A stretch of DNA of 64,000 bases from a virus (IMGVR_UViG_3300001605_000025:1-64000), one strand, 5' to 3'. Counted from the stretch's first letter, positions 5,007-64,000 are shown. Notes: generated from the sequence alone by a model not told the origin. A program made the numbers and translations.

Positions 5007-6196
5007 TCCATCGGTTCTTTAATCTCTTTGAATGCTTTCAGAATATTCTTCGTTGTTAACGAGTCACCGTAAATAATACAGTTCTCGAACGCAGCGCGGA
5101 TATCTGATCCGCTCGCATCTCTCAGTTCTTTACAGAGCCAATCAACATCAACATCAGCTTCGTAGCGTCCTGCATAAAACGCTACAATCATACGTCTCTT
5201 CTCATCTGTCGGCTTCTGTACTTTAATTGCAGGACCTAAACGTCCCACCCTCAGTAATGCTTCATCCAGATCAGCTGCTCGATTTGTTGTCGCGATGAAC
5301 TTAACATGTCCGATATCTCCAACACCATCGAGAACACGTAACAGCTTGAAGACTTTCTCTCTATCTACAGCTCGTGTAAGTCCGTTCTCATCAATCTCAT
5401 CCGCAACAATCAACGCACTTTTTCCGAGGAATCTCATCAGTTTATCGAGTGCTTTCACGAAGTCCTCCCAGGTATCCGAATCAGACCCTAACGGATAGTG
5501 TATCCAGTCCGGAGTTCTCCGTATGATCTCCTTCACGATCTCACTCTTTCCACAACCTGGGGATCCATGTAGTAAAATGTGTCGGTTGATCAATCTTGGA
5601 TCAGTTGTTGTAATCGTAGCGAGAATCCGTTCAATTGTTTTTTCCTCACCAACCAATTCGATACTACCCTCCTCAAGCGTCATGACTTTGCTGAGTGCTG
5701 CGAATATGATCGTCTTCAACGGTTCGAGAGCTTCCTTGTATCCGCTGATGTATAGCACCGACAGTATGTTTATCATACTCTCGTACTTTGAATCGTTCTC
5801 GAACTCGATATACGTTCCTGGTGGAAACTTCTCACATTGCCTATTCGGATCTCCATATACCCGTGAAGTTGTACTGAACCATCCACCACGTCCACCGATC
5901 TTGGTAGATATGAAAGGTCCACTAATACTAACATTAATGAACGGGTGGCACTTCAGATATTTCAGTGGACTATCGGTACCATCTTCATCATCATCATCAC
6001 TGATGGTCCTCATATTCTTTACTGGAGTTGTTATCCGGAAATATGTACCAATCATAGGTCCGAACATTCCTGGAGACATACCTACATATAGATTCTCCGT
6101 ATCAACGAGCTTCCCGATCACTTTGATCGCATCGTTGATTACTTTCATATTACTCTCCAGCTTTGTGGTTTTACCGGTATACGTTAACTCAGTCAT
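5003..6196 (-). CDS. classical AAA ATPase (FtsH/Cdc48/PAN-type AAA module) with a unique ~200-aa N-domain
   Basis: Walker A GSPGCGKS, Walker B IVADEID and second region of homology ATTNRAADLDEALLRVGRLG. No HEXXH protease motif. Confidence 0.75.
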   Translation of the reverse strand: MTELTYTGKTTKLESNMKVINDAIKVIGKLVDTENLYVGMSPGMFGPMIGTYFRITTPVKNMRTISDDDDEDGTDSPLKYLKCHPFINVSISGPFISTKIGGRGGWFSTTSRVYGDPNRQCEKFPPGTYIEFENDSKYESMINILSVLYISGYKEALEPLKTIIFAALSKVMTLEEGSIELVGEEKTIERILATITTTDPRLINRHILLHGSPGCGKSEIVKEIIRRTPDWIHYPLGSDSDTWEDFVKALDKLMRFLGKSALIVADEIDENGLTRAVDREKVFKLLRVLDGVGDIGHVKFIATTNRAADLDEALLRVGRLGPAIKVQKPTDEKRRMIVAFYAGRYEADVDVDWLCKELRDASGSDIRAAFENCIIYGDSLTTKNILKAFKEIKEPME

Positions 6197-27200: not shown

Positions 27201-28389
27201 TCTATCTCCGTTAGCGTTACTTGGTGGAATAATTCTTGAACTCGTTACAACAGGAGTTCAAGTATTCTGGGATACCTTACGTATTCTATTTGATAGAGGA
27301 GCAATAGATGCTGGAATATATCTGTTACAGGGTTTACTCTATTTAGTCGGTAGGATTGCTAACGTGATAGCGACAGTTCTAGTTGGTGTCATATCATCGG
27401 TTATGCAACTAGTAGTTAAAGCTATTATCAGTAACATAGGATTGATTCCGGGTGTTGGATCATTCCTATCAGCTATGGGATGGGATGCTAAAACTATCAA
27501 TGCTGAAATTGGTAAGGTAGCTACATCATTAACGGGTGGTATTGGATCGTTAGTAGATCAGTTCTTGAGACCTGCTAGTTATGGGATCAGCTCATTACCT
27601 GGAAGAGCTAGAGGCGGAAAGGTAGTTGCTGGAACACCCGTTATCGTTGGTGAAGAAGGACCTGAGGTGTTTGTACCAAGTGGATCTGGAGATATAATTC
27701 CGAATCATATGACTGGATATGCCGACGGTACAGTTGATGCTATAAGTCTTGAGGCGTCAGCAGAGAAGATCGAGAAAGGAGGATCTGATATTGTATACGG
27801 AGCCGAGGCATATAAACGTATAATGGAAGAACACCGTTCTAAGAATTTCGATATGATGAATCGGTTAATTGGTAATGTCGATCGGATATTCTGGGATGTA
27901 TCAACGGGAACGAATCAACAGATCGGAATGACGAACCCGAACGTACCTGTTACCGGTGATAAGGATTATACACGACATAGAGAACAATTCCTAAGTGCTA
28001 GAACACAGGAAGAAGTTCGTGCTATGCCAAGTGGATTCAGCGGACGATATACTGAACTTGTTCAACCTATTGCTAGTGCTGTGACTAGTATAGCAACCGG
28101 GATACATCAATCATACAGTAGTCTAGAAGAAGTTCTAAGATTACGCAAGTCGTTATCATCTATGGGACCGTTAGCGACTCCAGTGTATCCACATCTAGCA
28201 TCTGGTGGGTTTGTTATGCAGACTGGTGCTGCGGTTGTACATAAAGGAGAACGTATAATACCTGCTGAAGAAGCTTCAGTACAATCCGTTCAGGTTACTA
28301 ACTACGTTACGGCTACCGTCAATAATAAGACTGATGAGAAGTATCTGTTAGAGTTAATGGGTAGAAAGTATTACAGTGGAGCGTATTAA
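21265..28389 (+). CDS. tape measure protein (2374 aa) with embedded YpsA/SLOG(DUF1273)-like domain
   Basis: Coiled-coil N-terminal half, hydrophobic glycine-zipper segments, and the C-terminal VIVGEEGPEVFVP motif typical of tape measure proteins. Track ORF 21250 uses TTG; the ATG at 21265 follows SD GGAGGGG. Confidence 0.85.
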   Translation: MADREIIEYEIVMDDTQLVETERRVKELRGMLEDVRKGVTVNMTVPDIEKELKARVAAINSYIKGSIKIDDMFDRRFDRNAARSVGDDVGKQVAKGMTEAIRSALNKFTPDTDVNLEKHIADPLQQKTIRETLTPSKTKTSQLVASKRESLANIKQSITALQNLTAEQKSELSKRNKEIDRLYSDEERADNEFIDQLTDAEERHDQVIKDLSVQMKKPRSELKDEGFYIKGKFVKTGFGSHRDVLEPTPLVTPASKEYGKGIGAQQKIPEPGPVPSRLPSRDRFKTNEEFLLALRKAREFYITQTFKEIFGRGAIDTKALSRMTKEQLAITTNENAPRKPRLDKQIETELKLLFNDPKYTVKLNEILKQAETNELGAIQEIRSIIEYERGKVDDIMPYNRIKQWKDRLKSTEPEDTGKREYHQVVPRHQAYDPLWHKRAGRTVERTVSAEPVDQLTDKFVRQKDVKYDTISKIQRRMRGINKLADQLYTVIQDAQTLSPKFYAALNTRQPKPISKHALSPKLEAMLEVEAERQLAPQREVQRAPATLVAFTGHRPNKLGGYDETTQPVRDIKAGLVDSIRTAIASGTKHFISGMALGADMWAAEAVLELKKEFPDIKLTAAVPFKGQERQWPKPVQERYSKILSQADTVKYISDEKSKLSISQMMQKRNQWMVDQADKMIAVFSGSAGGTANTIRAAKKRGIPVENVLENLKQPEQARTETVREAKKTLGPQYVPPVVPTTIEQTEKVVKPVEKAIQKPVTEKQVGPDAFAKIADAINNQLTIQSGPGLTPEQLTKHIDWMGLGKEIGTGFEPNPINLKPIQEAMERVLNAEPPKLLTAGKPTEVPDKVTLYRGGARKKEDSDIESTSNWFTDELERARGYAAMRTMASEGENKVPAIKTISVPSSLLKTLKDVGSHSPGHEFQLPPEIAKRAETAPDLLKGPITIYGKTPTVKMQQAYDSLVDKVIQPIKTGIDTFNNRSTEIPAESGTKYFKNAPKSQRFEDSLSGLDRKEYMQESQEGLDALHNEMNNMTWEQSGEVNKVKDVQKKRQDLIDFVKNAGVKIGLDIDETIQSMNVFSIMFGEESKGFLDPEYMNKNYEQWFEKLNKLSPIYSDIQKFLGNKSVLITARPNLVGLHDKAQQIGKQFGAIATFAVENTKEKAKLIKELGLETYYDEDTLQVTKLQKELDAIGATTKVMQSDFGVAREKGELPNVKRMAEQATAKPVTSPVKTELPTAPAQKPTRNTIADTLKGMVINGGALGGAGLGFLGGMTLGPLPAVFTGWLGANIGMWVDRVIKSGQLKQSIANLFNKTPVVEIPPTVVEKTTQVATGISDAMAGMLERSTFQAQKVIRDKFASVDKNGGTLTIEEAPGAEPAYPGAAVPNVPYVNPALVTRVEGSVTGIVTAMTTASRDIATAGGKVAGQIQVLGMEDFGSLGGSIKEAAQKGVQAVQEKMPRLGSSERPYTGGIRWQKFLDGTLFTDQKAYEEAVAAKIDESIKFQVDTLREMTGLSLEAATTLRKDLAAIIKPSRMKMSTLIGRAKAYIETKGATGTTPEALKEFATGEEKIFERSHPAMKNLVPEDVTPYQRMFGQDYTIKLSFLDYDEFMAAAETVRQLPGWTSTATKEFERYGQLGTNVLHTMKVTGHIPGGKEIGGRIEQVRTATETLATGPSAITERSQLEIGDKRLNLQERMNLAAMYLDKLNWKLVRGQMALLGIAFSMMGAIKMIQKAWSTVTTSMSNLPDIFKNIGMAMAFGPANAQGFLRTMLGSSNQIVGSWKKFTGYTATLNSMLAYFAFRLLQDTRVIFAIDRLVEKIIGLLSDQAFLDKIFGLIANIIDALPGAVDWIVSMVTWLMGILETPGMKDVLKWALAMGLAAQFLMTPLALLGGAVQFLGWAVSALAAILATVQAGWTLLLGQLMGAPAALTQVVAGIAGGIVLGLAAVWLLVKMGIIDAVVKIGEEFQKNFPDIMAILRIVLSPLALLGGIILELVTTGVQVFWDTLRILFDRGAIDAGIYLLQGLLYLVGRIANVIATVLVGVISSVMQLVVKAIISNIGLIPGVGSFLSAMGWDAKTINAEIGKVATSLTGGIGSLVDQFLRPASYGISSLPGRARGGKVVAGTPVIVGEEGPEVFVPSGSGDIIPNHMTGYADGTVDAISLEASAEKIEKGGSDIVYGAEAYKRIMEEHRSKNFDMMNRLIGNVDRIFWDVSTGTNQQIGMTNPNVPVTGDKDYTRHREQFLSARTQEEVRAMPSGFSGRYTELVQPIASAVTSIATGIHQSYSSLEEVLRLRKSLSSMGPLATPVYPHLASGGFVMQTGAAVVHKGERIIPAEEASVQSVQVTNYVTATVNNKTDEKYLLELMGRKYYSGAY

Positions 28390-44595: not shown

Positions 44596-44811
44596 TTATC
44601 CCTCTCGGAAAACTTTTCGTTCTATCATCATTCGAATAGCTTCTAGTGCTGGAGATATCTCTACCCAGTCTCCAGAAAAATAGCTGGTTGGTAAGTTTGC
44701 TTTATCGCAATATGAATCAAACAGTTCAGACTTCTGCATCCATTCATGTTCTGTGTCCAGAAGCTCTAAAAATTGGACTAACGTTAGATTAGTTTCTTTC
44801 CCTTCCGACAT
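44596..44811 (-). CDS. hypothetical protein
   Basis: 71 aa. Confidence 0.35.
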   Translation of the reverse strand: MSEGKETNLTLVQFLELLDTEHEWMQKSELFDSYCDKANLPTSYFSGDWVEISPALEAIRMMIERKVFREG

Positions 44812-45563
44812 ACCGACACCACGTCATGCTGATGAATTGATTCCTGATGTGTACAGACGACTACCCAATCTTCCATCCATCCATCGATCGTTGCACCGAT
44901 CACTCTTGAAGCATCCTCGACAAACAGATTCGTTCGGGCGGCTCGCTGACACCAATCTAGTTCGTCCGGTCTCTTCATCAACGGTATAGGAACAATGTCT
45001 ACCACTTCGATGATCCGTGCTACAATTGATGTCATTAGATCGTCCAGGTCCTCCTTCGGCGATAACAATCCAGTTACCTGTGCTAAAGCTCGCTGCATAT
45101 GAGGAACCCCTCCTTCTTGTTTCACCATTCTCATGGCACATGGGCACACACTCGCATACGGAACTTTCATAGTCAGATACCAATCTTCTTTATCGGGTAC
45201 ACGGACACCTTCTAACATACTATCTATAAAGATCAATTGTTCGTTCTCCATCTCATATGCTGCTGTCCAATTACATTCCCAGTAACTGTTAGTCGTTTCA
45301 TGTCCTTCAGCTAACGTTTCTAATAATTCTGAGTTCATATAAATCGGATCGTCCTCGTAATCTGTTAACGCATCAACTAATCGTGACATATGAACACCAG
45401 TCCGATCGATCAGATCAACATAAGCAGACTGACTTGTTAACGTTCGTCGTCCGCTAAAGTCTTGCATAAACTGTTTGAATCCTTTAATACCAACTTTCTC
45501 TAGTGGCATACCACCAGACGGACCTTCAGCATAGTCAGGTAACAATCGTACACATGAATCCAT
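44784..45563 (-). CDS. folE2: GTP cyclohydrolase FolE2/MptA-like
   Basis: N-terminal LPDYAEGPSGGMPLEKVGIKGFK resembles the FolE2 LPDVQ...VGIKxL block. The start was trimmed to the ATG with SD AAGGAG. Confidence 0.5.
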   Translation of the reverse strand: MDSCVRLLPDYAEGPSGGMPLEKVGIKGFKQFMQDFSGRRTLTSQSAYVDLIDRTGVHMSRLVDALTDYEDDPIYMNSELLETLAEGHETTNSYWECNWTAAYEMENEQLIFIDSMLEGVRVPDKEDWYLTMKVPYASVCPCAMRMVKQEGGVPHMQRALAQVTGLLSPKEDLDDLMTSIVARIIEVVDIVPIPLMKRPDELDWCQRAARTNLFVEDASRVIGATIDGWMEDWVVVCTHQESIHQHDVVSVCRKGKKLI

Positions 45564-45564
45564 A

Positions 45565-45738
45565 CTACTGCTCCTTTGGGTTCTTCCAGTTACCAAATAC
45601 AGTCTCAAGAACAGCTGCTGAATATGGATGTGTATTACATGAATTATGAAGTAGCTGTTGGTCACAGCTTATAGCTCGTAACGCCTCTCCAATTGCATCT
45701 ACTTTCTGTTCAAGTCTTTTAAAGTCTTTAGTAGTCAT
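45565..45738 (-). CDS. small hypothetical protein (57 aa)
   Basis: The ATG overlaps the QueE stop (TAATG). Approximate. Confidence 0.3.
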   Translation of the reverse strand: MTTKDFKRLEQKVDAIGEALRAISCDQQLLHNSCNTHPYSAAVLETVFGNWKNPKEQ

Positions 45739-46385
45739 TATCTCACCTTATACAGTACATGAAGTCTCGGGCTTACGGCTCCGTTAACTCCATATTCATC
45801 CATCATACGAATAATCTCACGAACCATTCTATTATGTTCCGTTATCATCGTATCGTCCTGGGGAGTCATCGGCATAAAGTACATTCTCACTTCAGAGTGT
45901 TCAGTTGCCCATTTCATCCACCATCTAATATTCTCATACCTAATAACTGGTTTAATAACTACATCTACTTCACAAATGTTAGTCCACAACGTTAATAGAT
46001 CGGTCAGTCCAGAAGTAGGTAGTTCACTATCTTTCGGACTAACAACTACCAGATCGAACGCAGCAACACCAAACGGTATCGTTCCATTCGTTTCGATAGC
46101 ATGTGTCATACCTAACGATTCAACTGAAGCGATCGTATCCTTTATCTCATCAACCTGGAGTCCAGGTTCTCCACCAGTCCAGACAACGTTCCTCACTCCT
46201 TTCTTATATGCTTTAGTAATCAGGCTTTTTAGTTCAGTCCGACTAACATTAATATACAGTGTTGCGTATTTCGTATCACAAAAAGGACAATGAAGATTAC
46301 AGCCCGATAGTCTTATAAACAACGACCGTACTCCAGCTTGTGGACCTTCACCCTGAATCGATATAAACGTTTCGTTTAGTCTCAT
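45738..46385 (-). CDS. queE: 7-carboxy-7-deazaguanine synthase (radical SAM)
   Basis: FISIQGEGPQAGVRSLFIRLSGCNLHCPFCDTKY. Confidence 0.8.
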   Translation of the reverse strand: MRLNETFISIQGEGPQAGVRSLFIRLSGCNLHCPFCDTKYATLYINVSRTELKSLITKAYKKGVRNVVWTGGEPGLQVDEIKDTIASVESLGMTHAIETNGTIPFGVAAFDLVVVSPKDSELPTSGLTDLLTLWTNICEVDVVIKPVIRYENIRWWMKWATEHSEVRMYFMPMTPQDDTMITEHNRMVREIIRMMDEYGVNGAVSPRLHVLYKVR

Positions 46386-61972: not shown

Positions 61973-63496
61973 TTACCCCGTTAAAAAAGTATAGTGTTCA
62001 ATATCCTTTAACATTGTTCCACGATCAGCTTCAAACATTGGAACAAACTTGAATACTGCATCGCTGTATCCACTAATCGGACATGTTAACGGATCCGACT
62101 CTGGAATCTTAAGTAGTCCGTAAGACGATACATCGAAACTATACAGTCTACAGTTCGGATTGACTTTCATCCTGTACTGTTTAAGCACATCCTGAACGTC
62201 ACTACCGTACCCGTAGCTATTATAGCACTGCATATCGGAGAACAAGAAGATCCGATCGTAGAACTGGTTCTTCGATAATATATCAGTTATTGCTAACCAA
62301 GCATTAGTAGAATGACCAACGTCAGTAGTAGCAACTTTCTGCATATTAGTAAGAATGCTGTCACGTTTAGATAACGGTACAGTCTTGTAAGTTTGTCCGA
62401 ACGCACCAACTGTTGCCTCCTCACATACATGTAACGAGATTGCACTGAACAGTGATGCGATATCAATGCACTGAACAGTACTCTTATCGGAAACGTCTGA
62501 ATGCATCGATCCACTGTTATCAGACGCAATAAATGTCTTGCCTGATATCCGTGGAACATTCTCAACGGATATAGTCATTGCATCGTTTATCGCATCCAGA
62601 ACTTTTGTAGGTCCACCTACCTCACGGTAAGCACTGAAGAACCTATAGGGGAACTGTTTACTTTTCCGTACAGCAACAGGATCCGTTAACCGCTTCAGAT
62701 AAAGATTCATATCAACATCATGCTTCTGGAAGTTTCTTAAGTTCCTCAGTAGCGCCATGTAGCCCATCTTTGGAATTACTTCCTCCCATGTCCTCTTAGA
62801 AGCACCGTTCTTCGAAATGTGAGTCTCCCAAGTAAACGGAGTCTCCAATGTTCCGTTGATAATCTTATCATACAGTACCTGTTGTTCTGCAGATTTCGGT
62901 TTCGGATGTGTCAGGAAGATAACATCTTTCAGTGTTACCTTTCCTTCACGATTATACTTCGCCAGCTGGTATTCATCAAACTGGTTTAACGCATCACTAA
63001 TACCCTTCTTTAGCATTCCAGGTATCGGAGCGAATGTCTTCGGTACATACTTCTTACCTTGAGCTTCAAGTGAGGCTTTCCGTTTCGCTTCTACTTCTGG
63101 GTTAATAGGTGACGACGCTAAAAAGTATGCTATCGCTTCTGCGGGTTCGTCAGCTCTCCGAAGAATACTTGAAACATATTTATACGCACCTTCCAGTTTA
63201 GTTCCAGCCTTAGCATACTCAACTAATAGAAACACAGGAACAGTTCTCAAGTACATTTCGTTCCGTGCATATGCCGCCAACTTCGGTACGTACTCAGGAT
63301 CGTTTACACTGATCCGTTTAACAAGATTCAGTATAGCATCGCTAGTCTGTTTCTCCTTCGTATAGTATGAGTCTCCAGACATCATAAACGACATCGTGTG
63401 GAGCATCAATGCTAACTTGTCAGAAGGCTTATACGCTTCCGCCCCCTCATAGTTAACGGGTTTCGTTCCGTTTGGTTTTGCATTAAATCTCGCCAT
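61973..63496 (-). CDS. rsr: Ro60 orthologue (TROVE domain + vWA/MIDAS)
   Basis: MALLRNLRNF, FPYRFF, IASDNSGSM (MIDAS DxSxS) and FLFSD blocks align with human Ro60. SD GGAGAAG before the ATG. Confidence 0.7.
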   Translation of the reverse strand: MARFNAKPNGTKPVNYEGAEAYKPSDKLALMLHTMSFMMSGDSYYTKEKQTSDAILNLVKRISVNDPEYVPKLAAYARNEMYLRTVPVFLLVEYAKAGTKLEGAYKYVSSILRRADEPAEAIAYFLASSPINPEVEAKRKASLEAQGKKYVPKTFAPIPGMLKKGISDALNQFDEYQLAKYNREGKVTLKDVIFLTHPKPKSAEQQVLYDKIINGTLETPFTWETHISKNGASKRTWEEVIPKMGYMALLRNLRNFQKHDVDMNLYLKRLTDPVAVRKSKQFPYRFFSAYREVGGPTKVLDAINDAMTISVENVPRISGKTFIASDNSGSMHSDVSDKSTVQCIDIASLFSAISLHVCEEATVGAFGQTYKTVPLSKRDSILTNMQKVATTDVGHSTNAWLAITDILSKNQFYDRIFLFSDMQCYNSYGYGSDVQDVLKQYRMKVNPNCRLYSFDVSSYGLLKIPESDPLTCPISGYSDAVFKFVPMFEADRGTMLKDIEHYTFLTG

Positions 63497-63538
63497 AACA
63501 CTTCTCCAGTATTAGGTATTCGGACTTCGGTACTTAAC

Positions 63539-63619
63539 GGTAACGGGTGGGAGTTGAACCCACACTGACTATCATCGTACTTGTCAGCTCCACCATGTAC
63601 GACAGGGCAATTCCGTTAC
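63539..63619 (-). tRNA. tRNA-like element 1 (possibly a Y-RNA module or atypical tRNA)
   Basis: Minus strand: perfect 7-bp acceptor GTAACGG/CCGTTAC and a T-arm GTGGG-TTCAACT-CCCAC. The interior (49 nt) does not fold into a canonical D/anticodon layout by eye. Confidence 0.4.
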
Positions 63620-63621
63620 CA

Positions 63622-63694
63622 ATGTGACTGCTGGGATTTGAACCCAGGTCGCTCGCGTGGAAGGCGAAGTAACTGTCAACTACGCCACTCTCTT
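63622..63694 (-). tRNA. tRNA-like element 2 (Gly-like TCC anticodon loop; acceptor mispaired)
   Basis: T-arm CTGGG-TTCAAAT-CCCAG, anticodon arm TTCGC-CTTCCAC-GCGAG and D-arm GTAG-TTGACAG-TTAC. The 5' and 3' acceptor strands do not pair. Confidence 0.35.
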
Positions 63695-63952
63695 AAGGGT
63701 ACAACCGTTTACAGCTATGTTAAGCATGATGAACCGTACTACACTACAGTCACTACATTAATTGTATGACAGGTGGGGGGGTTATATCCTCTCCGCTTAC
63801 AGATGGAAGCGTCTTTTACCGAGGTGCTTTACCTCTGACCATCGTACCTGTCACTAGTAATGATTGGAGGAACAATCGTTAACGGTGTTATTCCGGTAAG
63901 TCTGAAGTAACCGTTAACTTTACCATCCAATCTCTAACATATCGTTAGATAG

Positions 63953-64000
63953 TGAGTCTGTCCGGATTTGAACCGGAACCTCTTCATCCACAGTGAAGTA
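63953..64000 (-). tRNA. tRNA-His (GTG), 3' portion; 5' part lies beyond the window end
   Basis: T-arm TCCGG-TTCAAAT-CCGGA and anticodon arm CTTCA-CTGTGGA-TGAAG with GTG at positions 34-36. Confidence 0.65.

Follow-up and report, generated by a model that had tools for sequence, protein, structure and literature searches.

A tRNA-Gly-shaped gene with an inserted Ro module, a probable Y-RNA-like partner of Ro60, upstream of a viral Ro60 gene

The viral DNA IMGVR_UViG_3300001605_000025:1-64000 (the window, meaning the whole 64,000-nt stretch that was analysed) carries a complete tRNA-Gly(UCC) cloverleaf with a 57-nt hairpin inserted into it, a short distance upstream of a Ro60 gene. This gene, element A, looks like a rearranged, tRNA-ended form of the known Ro60 partner RNA. 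It is probably a Y-RNA-like partner of Ro60, and element B, which lies between A and the Ro60 gene, is probably a tRNA-like companion or a processing element. We infer the binding of A to Ro60 from genomic linkage and from motif homology.

The window contains the tailed-virus genes for terminase, tail tube, ribonucleotide reductase, thymidylate synthase and dCTP deaminase. It also encodes FolE2 together with a radical-SAM enzyme, an ERCC4 nuclease, an MCM-like protein and a family-B polymerase (PolB), which has its best deposited matches in haloarchaeal tailed viruses at 25-28% identity. An MCM gene adjoins the same Ro60 locus in close relatives. The host is likely archaeal, judging from these sequences. 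The two Pfam domains of the Ro60 protein are TROVE (E = 2e-30) and vWA_Ro60 (E = 3e-10), and the nearest deposited virus protein is that of Halogranum virus HGTV-1 at 32.6% identity. A Ro60 protein identical to this one is encoded on the 74.9-kb contig L002, which extends the locus beyond the window end. Close relatives were gathered by exact-protein look-up. The single Ro60 protein, used as query against IMG/VR, gave no match, and a metagenome scan with a Ro60 alignment gave one close relative, L006, among the matches listed. The RNA region had no match by blastn to deposited phages.

Upstream of Ro60 is a gene-free stretch of about 1.1 kb (L002 4900-6000) with at least nine small structured RNA genes on the Ro60 strand. 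The window takes in the Ro60-proximal end of this array, in its last ~500 bases, and all of the RNA elements there are, like Ro60, on the minus strand (Table 1). The first-pass annotation had placed two abutting elements directly upstream of the Ro60 gene on the same strand, both with canonical T arms, and this is correct for A and B. The leader between the array and the Ro60 start codon is conserved, since its segment AGAAGUC(C/A)GAAUACCU is also found 5' of Ro60 in nine other loci (L086, L087, L088, L090, L092, L093, L094, L335 and L336).

Table 1. Features of the Ro60 locus at the end of the window, in window coordinates.
Feature	Position	Strand	Description
Ro60 gene	61973..63496	-	ORF, 507 aa; TROVE and Ro60 vWA domains
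Leader, RNA array to Ro60 start codon	63497..63538	-	contains conserved GAAGUCCGAAUACCUAAU
Element B, tRNA-like cloverleaf	63539..63620	-	82 nt; MFE fold z = -2.4
Element A, tRNA-Gly(UCC)-shaped gene with Ro module	63623..63753	-	131 nt; insert at position 26/27
A T arm CUGGG-UUCAAAU-CCCAG	63631..63647	-	canonical
A anticodon arm UUCGC-CUUCCAC-GCGAG	63652..63668	-	5-bp stem; U33, A37
A insert (Ro module)	63669..63725	-	57 nt, between D arm and anticodon stem
A D arm GUGU AGUACGGUUCA UCAU	63726..63744	-	contains G18 G19; from ARAGORN drawing
A 5' acceptor strand GUGACUG	63747..63753	-	7/7 Watson-Crick with CAGUCAC at 63624-63630
Element X, structured spacer	63766..63856	-	closed by GUGACAGGU/ACCUGUCAU; fold z = -1.5
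U7, simple Y-RNA-like hairpin	63861..63934	-	fold z = -3.96; module score 16/16
tRNA-His(GUG) + Ro-module chimera, 3' part	63953..64000	-	cut off by window end

The order of parts in A is acceptor 5' strand, D arm, Ro hairpin, anticodon arm, T arm and acceptor 3' strand. The acceptor strands are paired across 116 nt, and the 5' strand is followed by UA and then by the D arm. If the insert is ignored, A is a cloverleaf with a 7-bp acceptor, U8, G18G19, U33, R37 and a T loop. The anticodon UCC is at 63659-63661, and the 3' end of A is 126 nt upstream of the Ro60 start codon on the same strand. The insert begins with an A/U-rich linker, the 3' strand of stem2 (CUGUAAAC), GGUUGUA and CC. These are followed by the stem1 hairpin CUU-AAGA-GAG (3 bp with an AAGA tetraloop), a bulged U, GG and CGUA, and the insert ends with the 5' strand of stem2 (GUUGACAG) and UUAC (63669-63672). 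It therefore bears UGGCGUAG-N7-UUACUUCG as well as the GGUUGUA-CC strand that pairs with it; the internal loop is CGUA/GAUUGUU and stem2 has 8 bp.

ARAGORN found zero tRNAs in the 64-kb window and likewise none in L002, and native A was neither an ARAGORN gene nor an Rfam tRNA match. Deletion of the 57-nt insert in silico results in a call of tRNA-Gly(tcc) with a perfect acceptor. The earlier statement that the two elements do not fold as canonical tRNAs does not hold for A, whose cloverleaf is complete once the distant 5' half is included and the insert is set aside. The TCC element had been described with good D, anticodon and T arms and a mispaired acceptor. Its anticodon, 5-bp anticodon stem and T arm stand; the supposed D arm is part of the inserted hairpin (GUAG UUGACAG UUAC), namely the 5' strand of the module, and the true D arm is the one in Table 1. 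The mispairing was a boundary error: CAGUCAC had been matched to a 5' sequence that is not its partner, and its true partner strand and the D arm are located about 60 nt further upstream, beyond the interval first assigned to the pair of elements. Folding of A as a single sequence gives the acceptor and T arm only and prefers a different interior (MFE of -37.0 kcal/mol vs -27.0 for the comparative structure; z = -1.07).

The structure of A is carried by comparison with relatives. A-type genes occur in every close relative (Ro60 50-67% identical), and in each of these the 3' acceptor strand following the T arm pairs 7/7 with a strand ~100-120 nt upstream. The covariation set consisted of 18 tRNA-plus-module precursors aligned with MAFFT. 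From this alignment RNAalifold, run unguided, recovered the acceptor, the D stem, the bulged module hairpin and the T stem. The full structure is 90.7% paired across the 18 precursors, vs 69.9% for shuffled sequences and ~40% when the partners were slid, and 24 pairs are changed on both sides. Pairing is 100% in the acceptor columns, where 7/7 pairs have both-side changes, 100% in the T-stem columns, 92.6% in the D-stem columns and 98.9% in the module helix of CC/GG and stem1. Stem2 is 75% paired in the MAFFT alignment, a low value that is partly due to misalignment. The covariance model R1 was built from the 18-precursor alignment and scores A, which is one of its seeds, at 104.9 bits. Full-length members from outside the seed, in unrelated Ro60 loci, score 62-87 bits (L016, L017, L018, L068, L043, L073 and L077), and further members in the IMG/VR contigs L223, L275, L233 and L297 all have 7/7 acceptors. 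R1 also matches the annotated 'tRNA-Asp + intron' of HGTV-1 at 51.8 bits.

The conserved tRNA features may also be read another way. A and the His element could be working decoding tRNAs that permanently carry a Ro60-binding arm and are processed, CCA-tailed and charged; in that case the virus's own tRNAs would be what Ro60 acts on, protects or delivers, and the identity of the anticodon would count. Removal of the insert leaves textbook features, including a 7-bp acceptor, U8, G18G19, C32, U33, a purine at 37, a class-I variable loop of 4-5 nt, a T loop and a 7-nt anticodon loop. C32 and U33 are invariant and the anticodon loop has 7 nt in 18/18 aligned relatives, and together with the perfect acceptors this fits decoders as well as mimics. 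Nine relatives share the anticodon UGU on one scaffold, ARAGORN detects no other tRNA of the virus (window, L002), and the YrlA of M. smegmatis is cleaved by RNase P and then gains CCA (PMC4201824). However, a His-like scaffold with similar acceptors and D arm has the anticodon GUG, UUG, GCA or UCA depending on the relative, and the scaffold of A has UCC here but UUG in L006 on an identical acceptor. Since the anticodon varies on like scaffolds, it looks unconstrained. A proper anticodon arm is absent in two members (L223 3953-4075 and that of HGTV-1), and a 57-nt helix at 26/27 would probably clash with contacts to the ribosome and the synthetase. A decoding role is considered unlikely.

The Y-RNA-like reading of A is carried by the module and its linkage to Ro60. 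Of 148 fetched loci with a Ro60 gene, 71 have the module signature beside it, including that of Caulobacter phage CcrColossus. The architecture, shared by Y-RNA-like units next to Ro60 in numerous viruses and bacteria, is a stem1 of 4-6 bp, a bulged U, GG/CC, CGUA opposite GAUUGUU, an 8-bp stem2 and WUAC, and in aligned occurrences a hairpin beginning UUCG comes directly after WUAC. The motif ACRGWTACTTC has eight copies on the Ro60 strand of the L002 array and three in the window (0.19 expected), two of them within the last 400 bases. Of the 20 fetched loci containing it, 18 have it on the Ro60 strand, and it also occurs beside Ro60 proteins that are only 34-43% identical. A scan of IMG/VR for GGCGTAG-N7-WTACTTCG placed 66 of 142 viral matches in a Ro60-bearing locus, with 66/66 on the Ro60 strand. 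The same scan of cellular genome contigs found Ro60 in 8 of 120 loci; these matches are mostly due to chance, so the scan says little about host range. An HMM of the module 5' half, trained without this virus, has its best match in the 64-kb window at 63669-63690 (E = 0.0036), which is in the insert of A.

A pairing score of at least 15/16 was reached by 129 of 186 non-redundant units beside Ro60, vs 17 in the mismatched control. For a set of 137 units the 3' halves were picked by maximal pairing, which inflates the pair counts; in this set each stem column has four to six pair types, with 104 units having G-C and 32 having A-U at the first GG/CC pair. The U, A and C of the WUAC consensus are fully or nearly invariant across the 137 units. 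GGCGUAG is the commonest form beside Ro60, with U in 94 and A in 25 of the 137. The proposal that the two elements are YrlA-like Ro60 partners is thus favored for A, which has the signature common to Ro60-adjacent Y-RNA-like units. It was not supported for B, which has no statistically detectable signature.

The same module also occurs in RNAs of a different topology. L011 has at least eight units in canonical YrlA order, which is Ro stem, V hairpin, T arm, closed acceptor stem-loop, D arm and Ro stem. U4 and U5, from the same array in L002, are in YrlA order as well. CcrColossus has an array with UGGCGUAG-N7-UUACUUCG upstream of its Ro60 in the closed-acceptor topology, and its annotated 'tRNA-Gln' falls inside a Y-type unit. 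This phage is cited as having Y RNA-like ncRNAs (PMC12135203).

These arrays bear on the reading of the insert as an intron, in which an archaeal virus would have A and its relatives as split tRNA genes and the hairpin would be cut out, maybe as a small free Y RNA. The replication genes are archaeal-virus-like (PolB, ERCC4, MCM-like), relatives carry MCM, the HGTV-1 homologue is annotated in GenBank as 'tRNA Asp (gtc) + Intron', and the Rfam tRNA model tolerates the insert in L086, L087 and L012. An archaeal intron was nevertheless rejected by a bulge-helix-bulge scan of 16 precursors, which found no such motif at a consistent position and none at all in 5/16. In addition, the same module forms the RNA ends in the closed-acceptor topology (this array, L011 and CcrColossus), and YrlA, which has that topology, is a stable Ro60-bound RNA in bacteria and not an intron (PMC4201824). 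The insert is therefore read as a retained arm, and excision as an intron seems quite improbable. That these are decaying tRNA genes or pseudogenes, sharing a promoter or processing signal unrelated to Ro60, is very hard to credit: tRNA detectors do fail on the native sequence and the single-sequence folding z-scores of A are unremarkable, but compensatory changes keep every helix across relatives with Ro60 50-67% identical, the motif pairs with a conserved partner strand, and the signature and Ro60 are on the same strand in 66/66 viral co-occurrences.

At the gathering threshold the sole match of the Rfam tRNA model in the window is the cut-off element at 63953-64000. At E <= 10 no Y-RNA family matched the region, and the matches obtained were T-arm fragments together with sub-threshold matches to mascRNA, tRNA-Sec and the tmRNA T arm. 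A itself matches mascRNA at 19.3 bits and a tmRNA T arm, all below the gathering scores of the families. The Rfam Y-RNA models gave no match at the gathering threshold on L011 either, despite its canonical-topology array. The Rfam library therefore seems blind to this Y-RNA group, and the Y-RNA covariance search proposed as a check in the first-pass annotation says nothing either way.

The His element, at the end of the window, had been taken for a normal tRNA-His. The complete gene in contig L002 is a chimera with the same kind of insert as A (5421-5544, which would be window 63953-64076). Its 3' part in the window scores 34.5 bits with the Rfam tRNA model, and R1 scores the element at 98.4 bits. 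Deletion of the insert in silico leads ARAGORN to call tRNA-His(gtg) with a perfect acceptor. Between A and the His element are U7 and the spacer X. U7 has the order stem1 GAUUGGA/UCCAAUC, bulged U, GG/CC, a UAAA/GAUUGUU loop and a 9-bp stem2, with a terminal loop of 21 nt that opens with the motif UUACUUCA; 0/200 shuffles fold as well. In element X, the segment CAGAGGUAAAG(N)ACCUC recurs in L088.

Element B is the element that had been described with a perfect acceptor stem and an over-long interior, and both were found, as 8 bp (GGUAACGG/CCGUUACC) and 49 nt. The interior consists of H1, a bulged hairpin GCC-C-UGU-CGU-ACA-U-GGU, and H2, which has 6 bp and a 13-nt loop AAGUACGAUGAUA, with no variable loop. 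The 13-nt loop is not an anticodon loop. The T arm is GUGGG-UUCAACU-CCCAC at 63547-63563, the acceptor is stacked on it, and the 3' end of B is 42 nt upstream of the Ro60 start codon on the same strand. A homologue in L094 (2448-2529) is 85% identical. It differs from B almost only by compensatory changes, in which nine pairs are changed on both sides (four in the acceptor, three in H2 and two in the T stem), and H1 and all loops are invariant between the two. A possible alternative 8-bp pairing of UGUCGUAC with GUACGAUG is also conserved. As judged from this comparison, B is a real, lineage-specific conserved tRNA-like RNA.

The covariance model R2 for the B type, run on 93 loci, found only this virus and L094, and an IMG/VR pattern scan gave no further homologues. 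In other relatives this site is occupied by a different tRNA-like element or by an ordinary tRNA. L086, L092 and L087 have B-type elements that look unlike B, and no convincing alignment with them was obtained. A tRNA-Sec identity was rejected, since B scores 29.4 bits on Rfam tRNA-Sec (RF01852) vs a gathering score of 47 and has neither a UCA anticodon loop nor a long variable arm. A Ro module in B, suggested by the by-eye resemblance of ACA-U-GG-UGGAG and AAUUGCC, was unsupported, as the HMM of the module 5' half, searched over the 64-kb window, did not match B. The link of B to Ro60 therefore comes from its position. This position, before the conserved Ro60 leader, suggests a role in precursor processing or a further Ro60 partner.

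A possible mechanism follows from the YrlA literature, from which co-transcription and cleavage at tRNA-like ends are inferred. The array and Ro60 would be co-transcribed, and RNase P and the 3' tRNA-processing nuclease would cut at the tRNA-like acceptor stems, which would release the RNAs and the Ro60 mRNA. The bulged helix of the hairpin and the UGGCGUAG strand may bind the viral Ro60 ring, as has been proposed for the GNCGAAG of YrlA. The tRNA body could serve as an effector module that recruits an exoribonuclease or enzymes that bind tRNA, and CCA may be added to it. A bolder version, which we doubt, is that these are chargeable tRNAs with a built-in Ro60 arm, or Y RNAs that get CCA, are aminoacylated and perhaps take part in translation, or that they are the source of YrlA. 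If this were true, the viral Ro60 ring would be physically coupled to specific tRNAs.

Bacterial Y RNAs mimic tRNA, and the characterised YrlA has neither a free acceptor end nor an anticodon loop. An RNA that is naturally encoded with an open acceptor and a canonical anticodon arm makes the purpose of the tRNA-like part directly testable. Many Ro60 loci share the tRNA-plus-module form, and it is present in at least one virus in culture, HGTV-1. No description of a tRNA-ended Ro-module form was found in the literature searched, and the A-type topology appears to be undescribed. For viruses with archaeal-type replication genes, Ro60 has been reported in that literature and no report of a Y RNA was found; the present locus would extend Y-RNA-type partners to such viruses. 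The results also flag two probable misannotations, the 'tRNA-Asp + intron' of HGTV-1 and the 'tRNA-Gln' of CcrColossus. An earlier proposal is that YrlA was derived from dimeric tRNA transcripts (bioRxiv 10.1101/312249). A tandem array of A-type genes, read from module loop to module loop, gives the YrlA order, which fits this origin and offers a concrete route for it from tandem tRNA transcripts.

Among other RNAs with an acceptor-T-arm minihelix and a non-standard interior, B resembles mascRNA, tmRNA and tRNA-Sec. A is like archaeal tRNA genes with non-canonical introns in that the interruption is outside the anticodon loop and the virus has archaeal-type replication genes; unlike these, A is without a bulge-helix-bulge, and what interrupts it is a conserved Ro-type module and not just any intron. 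Yrn1 of D. radiodurans, another Y RNA, also has a T arm and an anticodon-like arm in an arrangement unlike that of YrlA. In Yrn1 the Ro-binding stem replaces the acceptor, whereas A keeps its acceptor and has the Ro stem as an additional arm at 26/27.

The closest known system is YrlA, for which a structure has been published (bioRxiv 10.1101/312249). YrlA genes are same-strand neighbours of Ro60, no more than a few hundred bases away, and often in arrays. A and B are similarly close, and both are encoded on the Ro60 strand within ~4 kb of the gene, as is expected of a YrlA-type RNA. The proposed Ro60 contact of YrlA is GNCGAAN0-1G near the 5' end (PMC4201824); A has GGCGUAG, with U replacing the first A, as in CcrColossus. 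YrlA also has a conserved YUAY (PMC4201824) with a UA kink (PMC4201824; bioRxiv 10.1101/312249), and A has UUAC right after the stem. The T arm, D arm, acceptor helix and the hairpin upstream of the T arm are all present in A. The main differences are that YrlA has a loop-closed acceptor stem and both of its RNA ends in the Ro-binding stem, whereas the Ro stem of A is a closed hairpin (AAGA), its acceptor is open and its order is that of a normal tRNA gene. YrlA of S. Typhimurium has no anticodon loop and no free CCA end, while A has a canonical UCC anticodon arm. The YrlA of M. smegmatis and the Yrn2-tRNA(Asp)-Yrn1 precursor of D. radiodurans are cut at their tRNA-like ends (PMC4201824). The cleaved YrlA-type form has a CCA-tailed free acceptor, is tRNA-like and is still bound to Ro60, and A likewise has an open acceptor. 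Cutting of the acceptor loop makes that form a two-piece RNA, whereas A is encoded as one piece. Since A is a complete tRNA-Gly once the distant 5' half is included, its topology is not that of YrlA; by its predicted structure, A is YrlA circularly permuted, with the ends of a native tRNA and a genuine anticodon arm.

The element at the window end, which the first-pass annotation had called a normal tRNA-His, is a truncated tRNA-His with a Ro module, the YrlA-type hairpin. The full copy in L002, a longer contig with the same Ro60, bears a 58-nt Ro-module insert, in which a GAAA tetraloop closes stem1. Where a G(-1) would precede the acceptor there is a U; the discriminator base is A. The anticodon on this His-like scaffold varies across relatives between GUG, UUG, GCA and UCA (L335 935-1061; L334 1637-1785; L087, L092, L093, L006), and the acceptor stems and D arm are similar despite the differing anticodons. 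The L335 version, with UCA, would decode the UGA stop codon. The scaffold of element A, a tRNA-Gly(UCC) cloverleaf with a Ro-module insert, carries UCC in this virus versus UUG in L006, and the acceptor is identical.

Coordinates of the tRNA-like, Y-RNA-like and leader features
Feature	Position	Strand	Description
tRNA-His + Ro module	63953-64000 (truncated by window end); full gene L002 5421-5544	-	From full-contig sequence
U7	63861-63934	-	Simple Y-RNA-like hairpin; complete Ro-module stem; fold z-score -3.96
X	63766-63856	-	Structured spacer; 9-bp closing stem GUGACAGGU/ACCUGUCAU
Conserved leader	63497-63538	-	Last RNA gene to Ro60 start codon; AGAAGUC(C/A)GAAUACCU
HGTV-1 'tRNA Asp (gtc) + Intron'	L001 983-1114 = NC_021328.1 70440-70571		Full-length match to R1 (covariance model of the tRNA + Ro-module form), 51.8 bits
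CcrColossus RefSeq 'tRNA-Gln'	L337 1628-1695 = NC_019406.1 109217-109284		Spans V hairpin (between Ro stem and T arm) and T arm of a YrlA-type unit
YrlA-type units, at least 8	L011 4690-6110 (358-kb metagenome contig)		Canonical topology; downstream of Ro60

The HGTV-1 gene annotated as 'tRNA Asp (gtc) + Intron' is located 3 kb upstream of the HGTV-1 Ro60, contains GGAGCGAUUGGAAGCGUUACUUCG and has a poor anticodon arm. It is probably a Ro-module chimera and not an intron-bearing tRNA-Asp. The CcrColossus 'tRNA-Gln' lies within one of about eight arrayed Ro-module units upstream of Ro60, and the RefSeq annotation is probably wrong. Several of the YrlA-type units in L011 have anticodon-like V hairpins; one of these, CUUCGCCUUCCAUGCGAG, is nearly the same as element A's anticodon arm.

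The elements immediately upstream of Ro60 in L086 (2866-2957) and L092 (~477-583) have GUGAGAUGGUGGACGCACCA and a hairpin with a 4-nt loop in common. The L086 element also has a CUUCAGU loop, which includes UCA. No alignment of these two elements with element B, the tRNA-like cloverleaf nearest Ro60 in this virus, was obtained and no family assignment was reached.

The leader motif occurs at the equivalent site in L086, L087, L088, L090, L092-L094, L335 and L336, and the Ro60 proteins of relatives sharing it are just 50-67% identical. The leader may have a regulatory function, perhaps in autoregulation by Ro60.

Elsewhere in the window, a third exact match to the Ro-module motif ACRGWTACTTC (28338-28348, minus strand) occurs at the 3' end of a 2379-aa ORF on the opposite strand. 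The upstream GGCG motif is absent at this site, and the match looks like chance. Separately, a GTP cyclohydrolase FolE2 gene lies close to a radical-SAM (QueE-like) gene (44784-46385, minus strand), suggesting that the virus has a pathway for 7-deazaguanine nucleotide modification.

Spacer X includes a run of seven C, and its CAGAGGUAAAG(N)ACCUC is found again in L088, where it is embedded in a longer stretch (about 350 nt) with a T arm at its end. The terminal loop of U7 is only 21 nt, and this combination of a full Ro-module stem with a short loop is reminiscent of YrlB and Yrn2, second Y RNAs of the 'long hairpin' type.
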